Source of the DNA: Candidatus Woesearchaeota archaeon
GTDB taxonomy: Archaea > Nanobdellota > Nanobdellia > Pacearchaeales > GW2011-AR1
DNA: 64,000 bases
Assembly (NCBI GenBank): GCA_964534185.1
Contig: CAZHOH010000004.1
Location: 17,438-81,437 of the forward strand
Direction: 5' to 3'
In this document: positions 42,874 to 62,926 of the stretch, one piece after another
How the letters are laid out: the number at the start of each line of letters is the position of its first letter
Numbering within the stretch: the stretch's first letter is position 1
The notes under the pieces: model-generated
The model's database searches: none
What the model was told of the DNA's origin: nothing
Seen by the model: the letters and a program-made list of their open reading frames with translations, nothing else
Translations under genes and position numbers: made by a program

Positions 42874-44952
42874 ATGGATAGAAAATTGGTGATTTTGGGG
42901 TTTGCTTTTGTATTTGGATTTTTGCTTTTTTCTTCGATTAATGTAAGTGCTAATGTTTATTTTACAGGACAGCCACAGGAAGTTTATAATCTTGGTGATA
43001 GAATTGACGTCGGTTTTGGGACTGATGGGACTCCGGGTTGGTTGCAGATAGATTTGATGTGTGGGAATTTGAGTCGGATGGTGGATTTTAGATATTTGGA
43101 TGAAGAGGAGGTGGAGTCTTCGCTTAATATTCCTCTTACAAATAATTTTCTTAGGAATTTGAAAGGTGATTGTTCTTTGAAAATGACTTTTGAGGATGAG
43201 GTCAAAGAGAGTTTAGGATTTAAGATTTCTAATGAAGTGATTACTGAGATAAGTTTTAATCAGAATAGTTTTAATCCGAATGAGACTCTGATTTATACTG
43301 GTAGTGTTCGAAAGCCTAATGGAGAGGATGTTGTAGGATTTGCTGAGGTTTCTTTTAATGGTGTTGAGTTGGAAAGTGTGGTTCCTGTTAATGGTGATTC
43401 TTTTTCTGGAGAGATTTTTATTCCAGGGAATATTGCTTCTGGAAATTATGCTGTTGAGACTTTTGTTTATGAAAAGGACAAGAATGAGGAAGTGACTAAT
43501 TTTGGTTTTTCTAATGCTAGTGTTACTGTTTTACAGCAGCCAAAAAGTTTAGAGGTTGAAGTTTCTAATAGCATTACTCCTGGGGAGAATCTGGAGTTTA
43601 GTGCGATTCTTTTTGATCAGGCAGGCTATAATATTGATGCTGTTCCTGTTGAGTTTGAGATTTATAATGTTGAGGGTGAAAGAGTGTTGAATGTTTTGGG
43701 TGAGACAGGAACTTCAAGTTCTTATAGTATTAGAAAAAATGCTCCTTATGGTTATTGGAATGTAAGTGCAAATGCTAAAGAGTTATCTGATTTGAAGAAT
43801 TTTTATGTTGATAAGTATCAGGAGGCGGAGTTTGAGTTGGTTAATAATACATTGAAAATTACGAATATTGGGAATATTAATTATGATAAGCATGTTGAGA
43901 TTGGTGTTGGTAATCAGACAGAGGTTAAGAATTTGAACTTGAGTTTGGGAGAGAGTGCTGAATTTAAGCTTTCTGCTCCTGATGGGGAGTATGAAATTAA
44001 TGTTAAGGATGGAGTTTCGAGTATTACTGGGAATGTTGTTTTGACTGGAGATGCGATTTCAATTGAACCTGTTCGGCGAGGGGTTTTGGGATGGTTGAGT
44101 GGCAATTTCTTTGCTTGGATTTTTATTATTTTAGTTTTTGGTTTGTTTATCTTGCTTACCTATCGGAAAGTTGTTCAGAAAAAATTTGTTTTGAATTTTG
44201 ATAGTTTGAAATTTGGAAAGAAAAATAAAGAGGAAGGTAAACCAACTTCTATGAAAGTTAGTAAAGGAGGGGTTTTGAAAGTTGGAAGTGATGGCAAAAA
44301 GTCAAGTGTTGATAATGTAGGTTATGAAGCGAGTTCTTCACTTGTTATTGATGGACAGAAGCAGAATGCAGGGATTCTTGCTTTGAAAATTAAAAATCAT
44401 TCTGAATTGGATAAGGTGAAGGGTTCGAATGCTCATGAAGCAATTAATAAGGTTGTCGATAAGATTTCGCATAATGGGGGAAAGGTTTATCGGGCGAATG
44501 ATTATATTGTGGGGATTTTCAGTCCCAGCATTACAAAGACTTTTGATAATAGTTTGAATGCTATTAAGACTGGGAAAGAGATTTCAGATATTTTTGCAGA
44601 GCATAATAAAAAGTATAGTCATAAGATTAAGTATGGAATTGGGGTTAATGAGGGGGAAATTGTTACTAAAAAAGATAATGGGAAGTTTTTGTTTACTCCT
44701 TTGAGAAATGTTTTGTCTCAAAGCAAAATGATTGCAGATATTTCTGAGGGTGGTGTTTTGATGAGTGAGAGTTCTCAGAAAAAAGTTATGTCTAAAGTGA
44801 AGGCAATTCCTAATCAGTCTCAGAGAGGTATTAAGACTTTTGCTATTGGAGAGATTAATGATAATAGGGAGAATCAACAGTTTATTGAAGAGTTTTTGAA
44901 AAGGAATAAGGGTGATTTTAAACAATTGAGTGATTATAGGTTGAGGAAATAG
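42874..44952 (+). CDS. large membrane protein: signal peptide, extracellular beta-sandwich-like repeats, single TM, cytoplasmic nucleotidyl-cyclase-like (degenerate) domain
   Basis: N-terminal signal/TM and an internal TM (WIFIILVFGLFILLTY). The C-terminal ~170 aa resemble a class III cyclase fold (ILALKIK...NDYIVGIF...KIKYGIGVNEGEIV) but the first metal-binding Asp is replaced by Lys. Confidence 0.45.
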   Translation: MDRKLVILGFAFVFGFLLFSSINVSANVYFTGQPQEVYNLGDRIDVGFGTDGTPGWLQIDLMCGNLSRMVDFRYLDEEEVESSLNIPLTNNFLRNLKGDCSLKMTFEDEVKESLGFKISNEVITEISFNQNSFNPNETLIYTGSVRKPNGEDVVGFAEVSFNGVELESVVPVNGDSFSGEIFIPGNIASGNYAVETFVYEKDKNEEVTNFGFSNASVTVLQQPKSLEVEVSNSITPGENLEFSAILFDQAGYNIDAVPVEFEIYNVEGERVLNVLGETGTSSSYSIRKNAPYGYWNVSANAKELSDLKNFYVDKYQEAEFELVNNTLKITNIGNINYDKHVEIGVGNQTEVKNLNLSLGESAEFKLSAPDGEYEINVKDGVSSITGNVVLTGDAISIEPVRRGVLGWLSGNFFAWIFIILVFGLFILLTYRKVVQKKFVLNFDSLKFGKKNKEEGKPTSMKVSKGGVLKVGSDGKKSSVDNVGYEASSSLVIDGQKQNAGILALKIKNHSELDKVKGSNAHEAINKVVDKISHNGGKVYRANDYIVGIFSPSITKTFDNSLNAIKTGKEISDIFAEHNKKYSHKIKYGIGVNEGEIVTKKDNGKFLFTPLRNVLSQSKMIADISEGGVLMSESSQKKVMSKVKAIPNQSQRGIKTFAIGEINDNRENQQFIEEFLKRNKGDFKQLSDYRLRK

Positions 44953-55332: not shown

Positions 55333-56019
55333 TTAGTCGTATTTTTCAAAATGTATGTTTTCTTTTTGTATGTTGTTTTTTTCTAGGAGGGTTTTTACTT
55401 CATTTACCATTTCTTTTAATCCGCAGATGTAGAATTCAGTTTCAGGATTTAAGTGATTTTTCAATAGTGTTTGGACTCTGCCTTTGTGTCCTTTGAAGTT
55501 TTTTGATGGGCGGCTGATTATTGGCAGGTAGATAAAATTTGCGTGTTTTAGTTGGAGTTCTTTGAATTCTTTGTCATATAGGATTTCGTTTTCGTATCTG
55601 TAGCCTGCTATTAGGATTATTTGTTTTTTGAAATTGTTTTTTAGTAGGTGATTGATTGCTGATTTGAAAGGTGCTACGCCTGTTCCATTTGATATGAAAA
55701 CTGCTGGATTTTCTGGCTGGATTTTGAAATGTCCTAACGGGCCTAGGAGGTTTATTGTGTCTTTGGGCTTTAGGTTTTTTAGTGTTGAGGTGAATATTCC
55801 GTTTTTGACTATTTTGATGCAAAGTTCTAAATCTTGATTTTGTTGGGAGGCGATTGAGTAAGGGCGGATGATTTTTTTATTGTTTGATTCTGAGATTATT
55901 GAAACGTATTGTCCTGGAATAAATTCAAAGTCTTTTGGTGTTTTTAGAACGAGGTTTATTGTATCTTTTGTCAGATTTTGTACTTGTTTTATTTCTGTTT
56001 GAAATTTTTTTGGTTTCAT
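55333..56019 (-). CDS. ferredoxin-NADP reductase-like FAD/NAD(P)-binding oxidoreductase
   Basis: FAD motif RPYSIAS and NAD(P) motif GTGVAPF. 228 aa, with no Fe-S Cys cluster. Confidence 0.7.
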   Translation of the reverse strand: MKPKKFQTEIKQVQNLTKDTINLVLKTPKDFEFIPGQYVSIISESNNKKIIRPYSIASQQNQDLELCIKIVKNGIFTSTLKNLKPKDTINLLGPLGHFKIQPENPAVFISNGTGVAPFKSAINHLLKNNFKKQIILIAGYRYENEILYDKEFKELQLKHANFIYLPIISRPSKNFKGHKGRVQTLLKNHLNPETEFYICGLKEMVNEVKTLLEKNNIQKENIHFEKYD

Positions 56020-56785: not shown

Positions 56786-57826
56786 TTATTCGTTAGGCAA
56801 CATTTTTCTTGAGCAATAATCTCCTGAGGTGTAATCTTGATTTTTTGTTGCTAGTTCGAAGAATTTTGGAAAGTCGATGAAAGATTTCTTTTTTAATGAT
56901 TTTTTCATTAATAGGAAAGCCCTTGAAGGGATGTGCTGTCGGACGTATTCGTATTCTGGAAGGTGTTTTAAAAGTTTGTCTGAGAATTCTTTCATTTCTT
57001 TCATGCCAGGCATGTTATCTCTTTTATAATACTTTTGACTTGCACCCACCCACATATAGGATTTTAGTTCTAAAAAATCTGGCTCGCCTCTTTTTATTAA
57101 TTCTGCATATTCTTTAAACTTTGACATATTTTCTTTTTTAATTAATGAAAGTCTTATGCAAGTTCTGTATTTTCTTGTTTTTAGTAAGTCAAGTGCTTTG
57201 AGCATTCTTTCCCAGTAATCGTCGAATAATGGACGGTCGATTTTTTTGAGGAGAGGTTTTGTTGGGGCGTCTATGCTTAAATATAATTGGGTTACGTGAT
57301 TTATTTTTTCAATTTGCTCTGGGAATTGAGCGTTTGTTACAAGGAAAGTTGAGATTTTGTTTTTGTGAAAATCATTAAGTATTTCATTTATTTTTGGGTA
57401 GGTGATTGGTTCGCCTGTTAGTGAAAGTGCGACGTGTCTTACGTTTTTCATTTCTTTTACTTTTTCTTTGTCGTGGTTTTCATACCCTTTTCCTTTGAAG
57501 CCTTGTAATAAGTCTTGGTGGGCTTTTAGTGAGCCTTTTATTATGTCTTTTGGAGAATCTGTTTTTCCGTACCATGTTTTTGATACCGGGGCTTTTAGTC
57601 CGCGCCAACAGAAAGTACAACGTGATGCGCAATACATTGAAGTTGTCATCTGCATGCATTGGTGACTTCTTATTCCGTAGAAAACATATTTGTAACATCC
57701 ACCTCTTCCGCGAATCATATTTTTTGTCCAGCCGCAGGTTTTTACAGATGAATGACTTCCAACCATTCTATAGCCCTGTTTTTCTAAAAGTTTTTTCTGT
57801 CCACTTAACAATTGTTCATTTTTCAT
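56786..57826 (-). CDS. taw1: 4-demethylwyosine synthase Taw1 (TYW1 radical SAM)
   Basis: HQCMQMTTSMYCASRCTFCWR carries the radical-SAM CxxxCxxC motif and upstream auxiliary-cluster Cys. Length of 346 aa is typical of archaeal Taw1. Confidence 0.7.
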   Translation of the reverse strand: MKNEQLLSGQKKLLEKQGYRMVGSHSSVKTCGWTKNMIRGRGGCYKYVFYGIRSHQCMQMTTSMYCASRCTFCWRGLKAPVSKTWYGKTDSPKDIIKGSLKAHQDLLQGFKGKGYENHDKEKVKEMKNVRHVALSLTGEPITYPKINEILNDFHKNKISTFLVTNAQFPEQIEKINHVTQLYLSIDAPTKPLLKKIDRPLFDDYWERMLKALDLLKTRKYRTCIRLSLIKKENMSKFKEYAELIKRGEPDFLELKSYMWVGASQKYYKRDNMPGMKEMKEFSDKLLKHLPEYEYVRQHIPSRAFLLMKKSLKKKSFIDFPKFFELATKNQDYTSGDYCSRKMLPNE

Positions 57827-58705: not shown

Positions 58706-59497
58706 ATGTTTGAACTTAATCGTGATGTTCGCATGGCGAGGCGGGCGTTTAAGAAAGGTGATGTGAAAGAGATGATTGCAGCTCATGAAGGTTATAATAA
58801 ACATAATCACCATAAGACAGGGGGGAAGTATGTTAAGAGTATTGTTTATGGAGGGTTGGATGGAATTATTACTACCTTTGCAGTTGTTGCAGGTGTTGCA
58901 GGGGCAGGGCTTGCTGCAGGTATTGTTTTAATTCTTGGTTTTGCGAATCTGATTGCCGACGGTATTTCAATGGCTGTGGGAGATTATTTGAGTTCAAAAT
59001 CTGAGAAAGAGTATTATGATGCTGAGCGTGAGAGGGAGAAGTGGGAAGTTGATAATTATCCAAAAGGTGAAGAGAAAGAAATGATTGAATTGTACACAAG
59101 GCAAGGTTTGAGTGAAAAAGATGCGAAGTGTATGGTTGAGGTTTTGAAAAAGAATAAAGATGTTTGGATTGATACTATGATGGTTGAAGAATTGAATTTG
59201 ATAAAGAGTGATGAGTCGCCTGTTATGAATGGGATTGTGACTTTTTTTTCATTTGCTTTTTTTGGATTGATTCCTTTACTTGTTTATATTTATTCTTGGT
59301 TTTTTCCAGGAGTTATTTCGAATAATTTTTTGGCGGCGATTGTTTTAACTGGAGTTGCATTGCTTGGTCTTGGGTTTGCAAAAGTTAAGGTTACTGAAAA
59401 GAGCTGGTGGCGGAGTGGGATTGAAACTTTGCTGATTGGTGGAGTGGCGGCTGGGGCTGCTTATTTTGTAGGTTATTTGCTTGGTGGGATTGTGTAG
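58706..59497 (+). CDS. VIT1/CCC1-family iron/manganese transporter
   Basis: GGLDGIITTFAVVAGVAGAG and a second TM cluster at the C-terminus. An N-terminal His-rich cytoplasmic segment is typical of the family. Confidence 0.75.
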   Translation: MFELNRDVRMARRAFKKGDVKEMIAAHEGYNKHNHHKTGGKYVKSIVYGGLDGIITTFAVVAGVAGAGLAAGIVLILGFANLIADGISMAVGDYLSSKSEKEYYDAEREREKWEVDNYPKGEEKEMIELYTRQGLSEKDAKCMVEVLKKNKDVWIDTMMVEELNLIKSDESPVMNGIVTFFSFAFFGLIPLLVYIYSWFFPGVISNNFLAAIVLTGVALLGLGFAKVKVTEKSWWRSGIETLLIGGVAAGAAYFVGYLLGGIV

Positions 59498-60147: not shown

Positions 60148-60432
60148 TTGAGAAGTTTAGTTATGGCAAAGCTTACTCGGGTTGATGAGGATGGAAGTGA
60201 AGAAAGTGTTGAGATTGTTGAGGGTGATGAAGTTATAGATGGGGCTGAGGAGTTGGGGGTGCCGTTTGGATGTCAAGATGGGCGGTGTGGTTCTTGTCTT
60301 GCAGAAGTGACTGAAGGCTATGATAACTTATCTGAGATGACTCAGGAAGAATTGGATATGGAGCTTGAAAAGCCGCATAGGTTAATGTGTCAGTGTAAGA
60401 TAAAGAATGGAGAAGTTAAGATTCGATTTTAG
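60148..60432 (+). CDS. [2Fe-2S] ferredoxin-like protein
   Basis: CQDGRCGSC (Cx4Cx2C) plus a downstream Cys pair (LMCQC). 94 aa. Confidence 0.6.
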   Translation: MRSLVMAKLTRVDEDGSEESVEIVEGDEVIDGAEELGVPFGCQDGRCGSCLAEVTEGYDNLSEMTQEELDMELEKPHRLMCQCKIKNGEVKIRF

Positions 60433-60466: not shown

Positions 60467-60697
60467 ATGGAAAAAGACATTGGAAAATTAAGGAAGAATG
60501 AGAATACTGAGATTGTGGTTCGGGTTGATGACTTTGGAGGTAAGCCAGGTTTGACGATTCGGGAGTTTGTTACAGGTGACAGGTATACTGGTTTTACAAA
60601 AGCTGGGACACGAATTGCGAAGGAAAATTTTGAGCAGTTTAAAGAGATGATCAATTCTATTGAAGAGGGTGATTTTGAAAGTGAAGAATCTTCTTAA
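60467..60697 (+). CDS. PC4/YdbC-like ssDNA-binding transcriptional coactivator
   Basis: 76 aa. IVVRVDDFGGKPGLTIREFVTGDRYTGFTKAGTRIAKENFEQF matches the PC4-fold pattern. Confidence 0.5.
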   Translation: MEKDIGKLRKNENTEIVVRVDDFGGKPGLTIREFVTGDRYTGFTKAGTRIAKENFEQFKEMINSIEEGDFESEESS

Positions 60698-61151
60698 AGA
60701 TATGAGGGAGAATTGGGAAGTTTTGGCTGGTTCGTTTATTGTGGTTTATTTTACTGCTTTTGTAGGTAGTTTGTTTACTGATATTGGTAATTGGTATGAA
60801 AGTGTGCGTCCTGCGATAACTCCGCCCAATTATGTTTTTCCGGTTGTTTGGAATATCTTGTTTTTTATGATTGCTTTATCTTTGTTTTTTGCTTATATTT
60901 CTGGGAAGAAGAGAAAGTTAGTGGTTTTAGTTTATGGGATTAACTTGGTTTTGAATGGGTTTTGGAGTTATCTGTTTTTTGGTTTACAAAAGCCAGGTTT
61001 GGCTTTTTATGGGCTGATTGCTTTATGGTTTTCAATTTTGTGGATGATTTTTGTTGTGTGGAGGATTGATAAGAAATTTGTATGGCTTCTTGTGCCTTAT
61101 TTGTTGTGGGTTGGTTTTGCAGGATATCTTAATTATTTAATTGCTTTCTAA
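60660..61151 (+). CDS. tspO: TspO/MBR family (tryptophan-rich sensory protein)
   Basis: Five TM helices with Trp-rich motifs (PPNYVFPVVWNILFFMIAL, NGFWSYLFFGLQKPGLAF). Confidence 0.75.
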   Translation: MKRVILKVKNLLKDMRENWEVLAGSFIVVYFTAFVGSLFTDIGNWYESVRPAITPPNYVFPVVWNILFFMIALSLFFAYISGKKRKLVVLVYGINLVLNGFWSYLFFGLQKPGLAFYGLIALWFSILWMIFVVWRIDKKFVWLLVPYLLWVGFAGYLNYLIAF

Positions 61152-61883
61152 TTCTTCTAAGGCTTTTGTTGGGTTGGATGCTTCTTTTATGTTGATTAAA
61201 GGCTGGTTTATTGAAGTTATGTCATCTGTTCCTATTCGCGGGCAGGATGTGTTAACCCAGGCTTTTATGAAAGGATAGTTTTCTAAAAGTGATAAGTCTA
61301 AAGTGTCGTCTATGAAAATGTATGCTTTTTTGTTTTGTTTTTGTAAATGTTTTTTTAGGTTTTTTGCTGTGTTGAGATATTGCTGTCCGGGTTTTGTTGT
61401 TACTAAAATTCCGATTGTGTCTGCGTTTATGAACATTTTTAGATTTCTTTTCATTTTTTGGATTTGTGCTTGGATTGTTGATTTGTCTATGATTGACATT
61501 TGTTTTGATATTGGGTCGTAGATTAGGATTGGTTTCACGGTTCTGTTTTTTGATTGTGCTAATAGGAGTGCTTTTGGGTGGAATAATCCGTCCCCTATGT
61601 AAATTGTTAAGTCTGAAGCTGTTATTATGTCGTCTTCAAAAGAATCGTGATAGGCGTCGCATCCAAGGATTTGCATTTCATTGCTTGTTCGTTTTGCTTT
61701 TGTTGTCTTTAGTTCTATTTTTAGTTCTTCAAGTTGTTTTTTTATTTCTTTGATTTCTGTGAATTGAGTTGCTGCGAAAATTGCGATTGATTTTATTTTA
61801 TTTTTTTTTAGGTAGTTTAGGACTTCGTCTGTGAATTTTATTTCTCCTAAGTATTTTGCGTCGATGAAAATTTGTCGTGTCAT
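61137..61883 (-). CDS. dph2: diphthamide synthesis protein Dph2, C-terminal two domains (split gene, part 2)
   Basis: Aligns by eye to domains 2-3 of P. horikoshii Dph2: ILGCDAY (2nd cluster Cys), IYIGDGLFHP, ILVTTKPGQ, and WVNTSCPRIGTDD (3rd cluster Cys, the ACPR motif). Confidence 0.7.
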   Translation of the reverse strand: MTRQIFIDAKYLGEIKFTDEVLNYLKKNKIKSIAIFAATQFTEIKEIKKQLEELKIELKTTKAKRTSNEMQILGCDAYHDSFEDDIITASDLTIYIGDGLFHPKALLLAQSKNRTVKPILIYDPISKQMSIIDKSTIQAQIQKMKRNLKMFINADTIGILVTTKPGQQYLNTAKNLKKHLQKQNKKAYIFIDDTLDLSLLENYPFIKAWVNTSCPRIGTDDITSINQPLINIKEASNPTKALEELESN

Positions 61884-62176
61884 TATAAGTACACTCCTTG
61901 AAGTTTGTTTATTAATGTAAGTGTCATTTCTTCTCTTTGAGATTTAAGTCCTTCTAAAGTTGCATTTTCTATATCTACATTTCCATATTCTTCTATATGT
62001 TCTTCAAAATGTTCTATTAAGAGGGTTGTTTTTCTGTATATTTCTAAGTAAAGTTCATAATTTAATTGAGATGGTTTTCCTATTTCTGGATTCATTAATT
62101 GAGTAAACAAAAATAGTCTATCTAAGTCTTCGGTTATTTTTTCAATTTTTTCTTTTGATTCTTGTTCTGTTTTCAT
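61883..62176 (-). CDS. hypothetical protein (97 aa) inserted between dph2 halves
   Basis: Start MKTEQESKEK overlaps the LMW-PTP stop (ATGA). Its stop overlaps the dph2-C start by 1 nt. Confidence 0.45.
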   Translation of the reverse strand: MKTEQESKEKIEKITEDLDRLFLFTQLMNPEIGKPSQLNYELYLEIYRKTTLLIEHFEEHIEEYGNVDIENATLEGLKSQREEMTLTLINKLQGVYL

Positions 62177-62589
62177 TTTTCTGAAAATTCTGATAAAATT
62201 TTTTGTTTTATTTGTTCTCTTATTTGTTTTGTTCTTTCTAAATCTGCAGTTTTTGGATCTTCTATTTCCCAATAAATTGCTTTTGATGAATTTTTTAAGT
62301 AATTGGGTATTGTTTCTGGCTCTGCCATTACAATTATTTTATCATATTCGGTTATCATGTTTTCAGTTAATTGTTGGGGCATATTTTTTGATAAGTTAAT
62401 TCCTTCTTCAGCCATGGCTTCTAGAAGTATCTCTGTTCCTTTTATTTGGCCTAATGTTGATTTACTTCTTTCTTTAGTTACTTTTGTTCCTACTGAATCT
62501 GCTTGATTAGGATAAAAGCTATTATGATATGCTTCTGCCATCTGACTTCTTCCTATGTTTGCCCTACATACATATAATATTTTTACCAT
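62173..62589 (-). CDS. low-molecular-weight protein-tyrosine phosphatase / ArsC-like (CX5R P-loop)
   Basis: ILYVCRANIGRSQMAEAY is the LMW-PTP/ArsC P-loop. Start placed at ATG 62589, overlapping the stop of the dph2-N fragment (gaATGgtaa). The longer tracked ORF (62697) would overlap dph2-N. Confidence 0.7.
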   Translation of the reverse strand: MVKILYVCRANIGRSQMAEAYHNSFYPNQADSVGTKVTKERSKSTLGQIKGTEILLEAMAEEGINLSKNMPQQLTENMITEYDKIIVMAEPETIPNYLKNSSKAIYWEIEDPKTADLERTKQIREQIKQKILSEFSEK

Positions 62590-62846
62590 TCTTTTGTTTT
62601 CCAGTATCGGTTGTGTCCGAATTGGATTGCTAAGTCGATTTTTAGGTTGCTGAGTCCGAGGGGGAGGTCGCATGCACCAAAGCAACTTCCGAACCAAAGA
62701 AATGCTTGTGCGGATGTTTCTTTTTCTATTTTGTCGATAACTTTGTCTGCTTGGTTTTTTAGGCCGTCAGGTAGCTGGATTAAAACTTGCTTTGCGCCTT
62801 GTTTTTTTATTTCGCTTACAACTTTATCTAATTCTAAATCATACAT
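62583..62846 (-). CDS. dph2: Dph2 N-terminal domain (split gene, part 1)
   Basis: KQGAKQVLIQLPDGLK and GSCFGACD (first cluster Cys) followed by IQFGH match Dph2 domain 1. The ORF stops right at the domain 1/2 boundary. Confidence 0.7.
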   Translation of the reverse strand: MYDLELDKVVSEIKKQGAKQVLIQLPDGLKNQADKVIDKIEKETSAQAFLWFGSCFGACDLPLGLSNLKIDLAIQFGHNRYWKTKEW

Positions 62847-62926
62847 GTTATTACTCTTTATTGAGGATTTTAAAATGTTTTGATAAGAAGAATAATCTTT
62901 AAATTTAGTCTTTTATAGTTTATTTT

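Follow-up and report, generated by a model that had tools for sequence, protein, structure and literature searches.

Dph2 encoded in two genes with a phosphatase-like gene and a small open reading frame between them in a DPANN archaeon

Dph2 is the radical S-adenosylmethionine (SAM) enzyme of the first step of diphthamide synthesis on elongation factor 2 (EF-2), and the intact archaeal protein is a homodimeric [4Fe-4S] radical-SAM 3-amino-3-carboxypropyl (ACP) transferase. The locus analysed here lies in a 64,000-nt stretch of archaeal DNA (contig CAZHOH010000004.1; the window, by which the whole of that stretch is meant and whose positions serve as coordinates) and encodes Dph2 in two halves, dph2-N and dph2-C, with two other genes between them. 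Division of Dph1/2 over two genes is already described for DPANN archaea: Narrowe et al. (2018, GBE; PMC6143161) reported Dph1/2 as an N-terminal domain gene and a C-terminal domain gene, a split Dph1/2 is listed for Parv-, Pace-, Woese- and Altiarchaeota (Dombrowski et al., 2019; PMC6349945), and a split DPH2 (Nst222 + Nst440) was found in the nanoarchaeote Nst1 (Podar et al., 2013; PMC3655853). The window has the same two-gene encoding and is an instance of this published class; the core finding is not new. The passages of those papers that deal with the split state only that there are two genes, whereas the break point, gene order and gap content are described here. Absent from those passages are the nested pair of a phosphatase gene and a small open reading frame (ORF) termed U, the range of adjacent, nested and unlinked halves, and a break placed before the last strand of domain 1. 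Modestly new are the nested arrangement, the gap as a hot spot and a U family confined to the gap. It is considered highly probable that the locus is a compact four-gene operon in which an anciently split Dph2 is made as two re-associating polypeptides, and that the labile gap between the halves carries a passenger phosphatase.

Four ORFs occupy positions 61137-62846 of the minus strand in the order Dph2-N, a low molecular weight protein tyrosine phosphatase (LMW-PTP)/ArsC-like protein, U97 and Dph2-C. Their stop and start codons overlap, read 5' to 3' along the operon, as ATGGTAA (7 nt), ATGA (4 nt) and TAATG (1 nt). The features are:

62868..62876, minus strand: TATA-like box ATTTTAAAA, 22-30 nt upstream of the dph2-N start, read from the sequence.
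62583..62846, minus strand: dph2-N, 87 aa, which covers most of domain 1 and carries cluster ligand C59 in its GSCFGACD loop.
62173..62589, minus strand: LMW-PTP/ArsC-superfamily gene, 138 aa, with a single cysteine; its start ATG overlaps the dph2-N stop (ATGGTAA).
61883..62176, minus strand: U97, 97 aa, cysteine-free; its start overlaps the phosphatase stop (ATGA) and its stop overlaps the dph2-C start (TAATG).
61894..61898, minus strand: AGGAG, Shine-Dalgarno-like, within the 3' end of U97 and 10 nt upstream of the dph2-C ATG.
61137..61883, minus strand: dph2-C, 248 aa, predicted to hold the last strand of domain 1 and domains 2 and 3, with C75 (ILGCD) and C214 (TSCPR).

An earlier reading of the letters alone (the original prediction) had described these four ORFs, and their strand, positions and overlaps were recovered as given there, as were the GSCFGACD, ILGCD and TSCPR motifs in their respective halves. 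The phosphatase start was moved from 62586 to the ATG at 62589 (138 aa), the sole start that keeps the CX5R loop. The same ORFs were predicted by the gene callers of two sources, and the identical four-gene order was present in a separate lineage whose assemblies came from several samples (L001-L003 and L086; L-numbers denote the related loci compared). Because the order recurs in that lineage and the callers agree, the arrangement can be put down neither to chance nor to an assembly artefact. The window is compact and has a G+C content of 34%. The closest homologues (74-76% identity) came from metagenome-assembled genomes (MAGs) of Candidatus Pacearchaeota or Nanoarchaeota, and the host is a DPANN archaeon of the Pacearchaeota type.

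The two halves were matched to complementary parts of the Dph2 profiles. PF01866 (cut-off 33.2) was covered at positions 1-59 by Dph2-N (35.9 bits) and at positions 76-289 by Dph2-C (128.7 bits), and TIGR03682 at positions 2-66 and 73-293, respectively. Against TIGR00322 (cut-off 35) the scores were 74.4 bits (E 1e-20) for Dph2-N, 134.1 bits for Dph2-C and 216.9 bits, in a single stretch, for the concatenate of both (N+C). Dph2-N was aligned to residues 6-84 of MsDph2 (6q2d), and residues 1-321 of N+C were aligned in one stretch to residues 6-312 of M. smithii Dph2 (E 9e-37); the alignments to CmnDph2 (6bxm) and PhDph2 (3lzc) were equally continuous, with 27-29% identity over 321 residues. At the junction, FGHNRYWKTKEW of the N half followed by MTRQIFIDA of the C half was set against YGHTPLPL--KYEVPTLFIEA of M. 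smithii; nothing is lost and 2-4 residues are extra, and the total of 87 + 248 = 335 aa compares with 325-342 aa for intact Dph2. The N-terminal ORF is therefore homologous to Dph2, and the two halves map to non-overlapping parts of the enzyme as had been claimed. A profile-profile comparison of the N half with the C half, run for internal repeats, gave no match (probability 2%).

Zhang et al. are said to have found in 2010 that the cluster ligands of PhDph2 are C59, C163 and C287, one in each of three domains. In the window, C59 (GACD) of the N half and C75 (LGCD) and C214 (CPR) of the C half were aligned with the cysteines of 3lzc, 6bxm and 6q2d, C59 falling on the GACD cysteine of PhDph2. 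All three are invariant among the relatives (alignments A1 and A8), as are G77, H78 and the CPRI segment. Dph2-N ends in a conserved tail, N-R-Y-W-K-T-K-E-W, of which W87 is invariant in alignment A1. Collinearity, predicted fold, the three cysteines and the motifs are thus common to the window and to intact Dph2 (PhDph2 3lzc/3lzd, CmnDph2 6bxm, MsDph2 6q2d); unlike these, the window has two polypeptides, 2-4 extra residues and the conserved ...K-x-x-x-W tail at the break.

A minority set was misplaced when N and C fragments were aligned together with MAFFT, so the final AlphaFold model of N+C was built from the C-half alignment only, with no alignment depth for the N part. This model reached a predicted local distance difference test score (pLDDT) of 81.6 and a predicted template modelling score (pTM) of 0.69. 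With Foldseek it was matched end to end to 6q2d, 6bxm and 3lzc, at template modelling (TM) scores of 0.62-0.69 over 325-344 columns (E 1e-19 to 2e-22). The three-domain Dph2 fold is accordingly what is predicted for N+C; a single-sequence AlphaFold run (pLDDT 40) was of no use.

One genome per GTDB species was scanned for relatives, which were found in 468 genomes; locus counts below refer to the best 80 of the 468. A fused dph2 was present in none of these loci (0/80) and the same break in every one (80/80). The N ORF measured mostly 80-94 aa, with three at 99-111 aa. Of the 120 best-matching relatives of Dph2-N, which came largely from Pacearchaeota or Nanoarchaeota MAGs, most measured 86-90 aa (a few 97-107 aa), at 59-76% identity; the 120 best for Dph2-C all measured 238-258 aa. 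In nine pairs the ratio of nonsynonymous to synonymous substitution rates (dN/dS) was 0.03-0.12 for the N half and 0.04-0.17 for the C half. From these comparisons the fission is judged to be ancient, natural, conserved and fixed in this clade. The earlier claim of a natural split gene rather than a random disruption is borne out by a break common to 80/80 species and by dN/dS of 0.03-0.17, and that same evidence, together with hundreds of metagenomic proteins that carry the break, refutes the idea that the halves are decaying pseudogene pieces or an assembly or sequencing artefact. C59, C75, C214 and the other motif residues are invariant and independent assemblies agree, and next to no weight is given to this explanation. 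The original prediction had allowed that the halves might be decayed pieces beside an intact gene; both are under purifying selection, and no second dph2 copy was found in the 64-kb window, the part of the genome that was searched.

Restoration of a single Dph2 polypeptide, by split-intein trans-splicing, ribosomal recoding or RNA trans-splicing, would find a model in the fractured genes described in 2009 (PMC2677866), in which a half, one or more intervening ORFs and the other half follow one another on one strand, as they do here. Fractured genes contain a split intein and an endonuclease and are mainly phage-borne, whereas the window has neither and the locus is archaeal and chromosomal. 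The 335 aa of the two halves are collinear with the 325-342 aa of intact Dph2, so that the 2-4 extra junction residues leave no room for intein halves. Spacing and frame vary among relatives (-7 to +70 nt, other genes, or more than 5 kb between the halves), which excludes a conserved recoding signal. Restoration by any of these routes is regarded as exceedingly improbable.

The break had been placed exactly at the junction of domains 1 and 2. In the N+C model the predicted secondary structure of the N part comprises helix 6-16, strand 20-25, helix 27-44, strand 47-52, the cysteine loop and strand 72-76; then follow a low-confidence connector (78-88), strand 90-94 (residues 3-7 of the C half), helix 106-114 and strand 119-124. 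The last two elements form the opening of the next domain unit, domain 2. Domains 2 and 3 repeat this order of elements, namely helix, strand, helix, strand, cysteine loop, strand, (helix), strand, and each Dph2 domain reportedly forms a four-stranded parallel sheet, a point likewise ascribed to Zhang et al. in 2010. The C-half profile 'LLLIDAK' was aligned with 'VVFIEAR' at residue 91 of intact CmnDph2 (6bxm). Because strand 90-94 precedes the opening of domain 2 and because of this alignment, the break most likely falls within domain 1 rather than at the domain boundary, on the connector that joins FGH(N) to the strand QIFID, some 15-18 residues ahead of the helix with which domain 2 begins. 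The C half would then most likely supply the last strand of domain 1, and by completing the domain-1 sheet could plausibly hold the two halves in a tight heteromer.

The nested phosphatase scored 55.1 bits against PF01451 (cut-off 23.2; E 1e-14). Its P-loop, V-C8-RANIG-R14-S15 (CX5R), is accompanied by D111-P112, and C8, R14, S15 and D111 are invariant in alignment A9. The best solved relatives were the Corynebacterium arsenate reductases 3rh0 and 3t38 (E 1e-9); the window protein shares with this family (PF01451) the CX5R(S) P-loop, the Asp-Pro and the length. It fell below every NCBIfam equivalog cut-off, including those of thioredoxin-coupled ArsC (TIGR02691: 39.7 against 174.3) and the glutaredoxin-type enzyme (TIGR02689: 45.1 against 157.6), and its single cysteine rules out a thioredoxin-coupled ArsC. 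To our knowledge, no link is known between this phosphatase family and diphthamide synthesis. The ATG at 62589 that overlaps the dph2-N stop also starts the homologues in L019, L023 and L044. One public source calls a phosphatase of 122 aa from a later ATG; as that start removes the catalytic CX5R loop, the call is doubtful and probably wrong.

Nested orthologues were found in L001, L019, L023, L038 and L044 and in about nine metagenome contigs, and the gene recurs in the gap in three clades. One of the nested copies, on a 1.8-kb contig (L089 930-1325), was matched in two pieces (residues 2-69 and 74-130), which may reflect a frameshift, a pseudogene or a sequencing error. Among 80 metagenomic loci with phosphatase relatives, about 10 were nested in dph2 and about 70 lay elsewhere. 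Because most relatives lie outside dph2, the phosphatase is most likely a passenger, and its translation would begin at the ATG that dph2-N carries at its 3' end (gaATGgTAA). The two intervening genes had been called unrelated, a description that suits the phosphatase; U97, however, belongs to a divergent family seen only in the gap and may have some link to dph2.

No match to U97 was found in Pfam, NCBIfam, PADLOC, PHROG or the PDB, and no homologue was returned by a word-indexed search of 5.8 billion proteins or an exhaustive HMMER search of 1.84 billion representatives. The sole other match in the exhaustive search, a 33-residue stretch of the 899-aa protein P0242 (E 3.2e-4), was treated as spurious. 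Even the syntenic 102-aa ORF of L001 was matched to U97 at a BLASTP E value of only 0.49 (about 20% identity), and phmmer gave no matches among the syntenic gap ORFs. A relationship became visible only by Smith-Waterman z-scores and leave-one-out profiles. The z-score exceeded 3 in 7/45 pairs of gap ORFs of about 100 aa (maximum 5.8) and in 0/46 pairs involving unrelated inserts. Profiles searched against the 16,068 ORFs of all loci ranked 8/10 members first (E down to 5.5e-5), with U97 second (E 0.12) and L014 ninth. On account of this excess of weak similarity and of the leave-one-out ranks, the gap ORFs of about 100 aa, U97 included, are taken as one very divergent and fast-evolving family, probably with two subfamilies, both present in L011. 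U97 is presumably helical. Members have no cysteines and no known motifs, and searches of PDB profiles, PADLOC and PHROG gave no consistent match; PF09638 (Ph1570), matched weakly by one member (L014, E 0.0016) and by no other, was dropped. An unannotated ORF of 108-116 aa lies directly 5' of dph2-N on the same strand in L001 (4650-4976) and L004 (4649-4999, abutting); it was not matched by the U-family profile.

Among the sequences examined, U-family ORFs stand solely between the two dph2 halves, always directly upstream of dph2-C and abutting or overlapping it, in at least nine lineages spread over the tree (the window, L001/L086, L088, L007, L008, L011 with two copies, L014, L048 and L049). 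This distribution, together with the recurrence of the phosphatase in the gap in three clades and about nine metagenome contigs, would suit a dedicated accessory role for the U protein, and possibly for the phosphatase, in the split Dph2, either as an assembly or clamp subunit or as a cluster- or electron-delivery adaptor made with the C half. However, most split species have neither gene, 42/59 linked loci have adjacent halves, and the close relatives L001 and L006 differ in carriage at a synonymous divergence (dS) of only 0.5-0.75. The extremely fast evolution of U, its lack of cysteines or known motifs and the location of about 70/80 phosphatase relatives outside dph2 also speak against an accessory role. 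Because most species with a split dph2 lack U, the family is not needed for the split enzyme, and a dedicated accessory is thought quite unlikely.

The state of the gap was scored in the 80 loci. The halves abutted or overlapped in 42 (-7 to +70 nt) and were separated by inserts in 17; in the other 21 no C half was nearby, and 11 of these had at least 4 kb on both sides, among them the complete chromosome CP070794.1 (648 kb), where the N half, of 83 aa, is on its own. The arrangement had been called unusual; this no longer holds, for the split is published for DPANN and 17/59 species with linked halves nest genes between them, while the halves are unlinked in others. The inserts were of five types:

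Phosphatase and small ORF: the window, L001/L086.
Phosphatase alone: L019, L023, L038, L044.
Single ORF of about 100 aa: L007, L008, L014, L048.
Two small ORFs: L011, L049.
Unrelated ORFs: L015, L042, L052, L071.

On a neighbour-joining tree of N+C (about 335 positions) the gap states were scattered, with abutting halves dominating every major branch, the deepest included. L001 carries the phosphatase and U, and L006, at the small dS given above, a gap of 7 nt. The sisters L049 and L052 (dS about 0.8) have ORFs of 82 and 120 aa (L049 5306-5933) and an unrelated ORF of 162 aa (L052 5285-5771), respectively; the sisters L036 and L042 have 500 nt without a clear ORF (L036 3664-4165) and an ORF of 156 aa (L042 5267-5744). 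Because sister species carry unrelated sequences between near-identical halves, turnover of the gap appears to be very fast, and the gap is read as a labile site and a hot spot of insertion and turnover.

Such turnover is also what would be expected had the fission itself been insertional, that is, had a gene (the ancestor of U or a mobile cassette) entered a loop of intact dph2, with abutting halves arising secondarily by loss of the insert. The U family occurs in distant branches, L048 included, and the inserted genes begin exactly at the N stop. In L019 (1990-2010 and 2410-2430) and L023 (1790-1800 and 2195-2210) the motif ATGGT(A/G)(A/G), as ATGGTAG, stands at both ends of the phosphatase gene. 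This gene shares the ...W-stop ending of dph2-N, and the ATG within the motif serves as the start of dph2-C ('MV'); the repeat looks like a duplicated junction left by insertion. Target-site-like repeats flanking inserts formed no general pattern, being seen only in L019 and L023 (ATGGTA at both ends) and in L007 (AAAATGACA). There is a precedent in phage Aeh1, where nrdA is split into nrdA-a and nrdA-b by the homing-endonuclease gene mobE, the NrdA fragments assemble non-covalently and the tails newly formed at the broken ends are important for this assembly (Crona et al., 2011; PMC3045599). The two systems have in common an essential enzyme gene in two genes with another between them. They differ in that Aeh1 has a mobile endonuclease, whereas no nuclease, integrase or intein domain was found in the scanned inserts (the phosphatase, U97 and the U-family inserts; those of L015, L042, L052 and L071 were left unscanned), and in that the Aeh1 split is confined to one phage, whereas the dph2 split is ancient, clade-wide and mostly has nothing between the halves. 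With adjacent halves dominant in all major branches, a split that came first is at least as parsimonious, although the tree is only a neighbour-joining tree of about 335 positions. Insertional fission is held to be unlikely.

A related and equally tentative proposal is that the gap is a long-lived privileged insertion site to which U is restricted, that the U ancestor caused the fission or U is a dedicated subunit of the split enzyme, and that the end of dph2-N (AAGGAG..ATGGTAA) acts as a coupling socket that captures genes. Across relatives dph2-N typically ends in AAGGAG..TGGTAA, and the ATG embedded in ...gaATGgTAA starts the C half in several species and an inserted phosphatase in others.

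The favoured reading, an operon for an anciently split Dph2 with a passenger in its labile gap, implies the following course of expression. The divergent intergenic region upstream of dph2-N measures 80 nt (62847-62926) and holds the TATA-like ATTTTAAAA at -30..-22, a probable operon promoter with a short or absent leader, from which transcription would start. TATA-like motifs at -45..-15 were found before 45/78 long ORFs of the window against 7/78 in the control; as Shine-Dalgarno-like motifs show no such enrichment (counts below), this suggests that the transcripts of this organism are mostly leaderless or have short leaders. No promoter-like element precedes the phosphatase gene, whose start codon overlaps the stop of dph2-N. 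The most economical account would be one transcript on which ribosomes terminate and reinitiate wherever a stop and a start codon overlap, and so translate the internal cistrons; translational coupling of all four genes is a reasonable reading. The AGGAG before dph2-C, inside U97, stands at -15..-11 of its start, and across loci a Shine-Dalgarno-like motif preceded the C-half start in 36/60 cases against 15/60 in the control. The two polypeptides would then come together again without a covalent bond, probably through strand complementation in domain 1, and so bring C59 of the N half and C75 and C214 of the C half round one [4Fe-4S] cluster; the complex may be (N.C)2 if it dimerizes as the intact enzyme does. 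Assembly in trans, donation of a strand, transcription as one unit and coupled translation are what we infer from sequence, and the earlier view that Dph2 function needs two polypeptides assembling in trans is upheld on that footing.

Several observations weigh against this reading. Shine-Dalgarno-like motifs were not enriched in the window (15/78 long ORFs against 15/78 in the control), and the phosphatase and U97 starts have none. The predicted strand pairing between the halves lies where the model has a junction pLDDT of about 44 and an N part without alignment depth. The N+C concatenate narrowly missed the equivalog cut-off of TIGR03682 (arCOG04112), at 197.3 against 202.8. Confinement of the U family to the gap sits uneasily with a pure-passenger view. 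Finally, the search for an intact dph2 copy spanned only the 64 kb of the window.

The 3' end of a TspO/MBR membrane protein gene on the opposite strand (60660-61151) overlaps the dph2-C stop by 15 nt, and a 76-aa PC4-like protein, with a score slightly under the Pfam cut-off, is encoded at 60467-60697. Genes with iron-sulfur or redox functions lie near dph2: on the minus strand a FNR-like flavoprotein (55333-56019) and a Tyw1-like radical-SAM wyosine enzyme (56786-57826), then a VIT1 iron transporter (58706-59497) and a 2Fe-2S ferredoxin (60148-60432). Fer2 and VIT1 also adjoin dph2 in L001 (8491-9931), and Tyw1-like, NifU and cysteine-desulfurase-like genes lie near it in L004 (7251-10261). 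The ferredoxin and the FNR-like protein could together supply the reductant for archaeal Dph2 and Tyw1. The window showed no ORF as long as EF-2 should be (roughly 730 aa); no search was aimed at EF-2, dph5 or dph6, and the scan of the surroundings covered ten ORFs close to the locus. A 692-aa protein with an MG2 (alpha-2-macroglobulin-type) domain is encoded at 42874-44952. Split archaeal dph2 was also met in records titled Acidobacteriota, Patescibacteria, Paceibacterota or Aminicenantes (L020, L058, L065 and L068) and in records titled 'uncultured Methanosarcinales' (L024-L026, L029, L030, L033, L035 and others); their dph2 is typical of Pace- or Woesearchaeota, and the records are probably mislabelled or misbinned.

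Dph2 serves as a single-copy marker of archaeal genome completeness, and halves that are encoded in two genes, nested or unlinked, lead to miscounts; Narrowe et al. (PMC6143161), in their passage on the subject, warn against the use of split Dph1/2 as such a marker. With the cluster ligands placed on two polypeptides, the locus indicates that the Dph2 fold can accommodate a chain break within its first domain, and it offers a natural design for split enzymes. The insertion hot spot between the halves and the U family confined to it could reveal the origin of the fission, or else a new helper of diphthamide synthesis in these organisms, for which we know of no Dph3-like partner.

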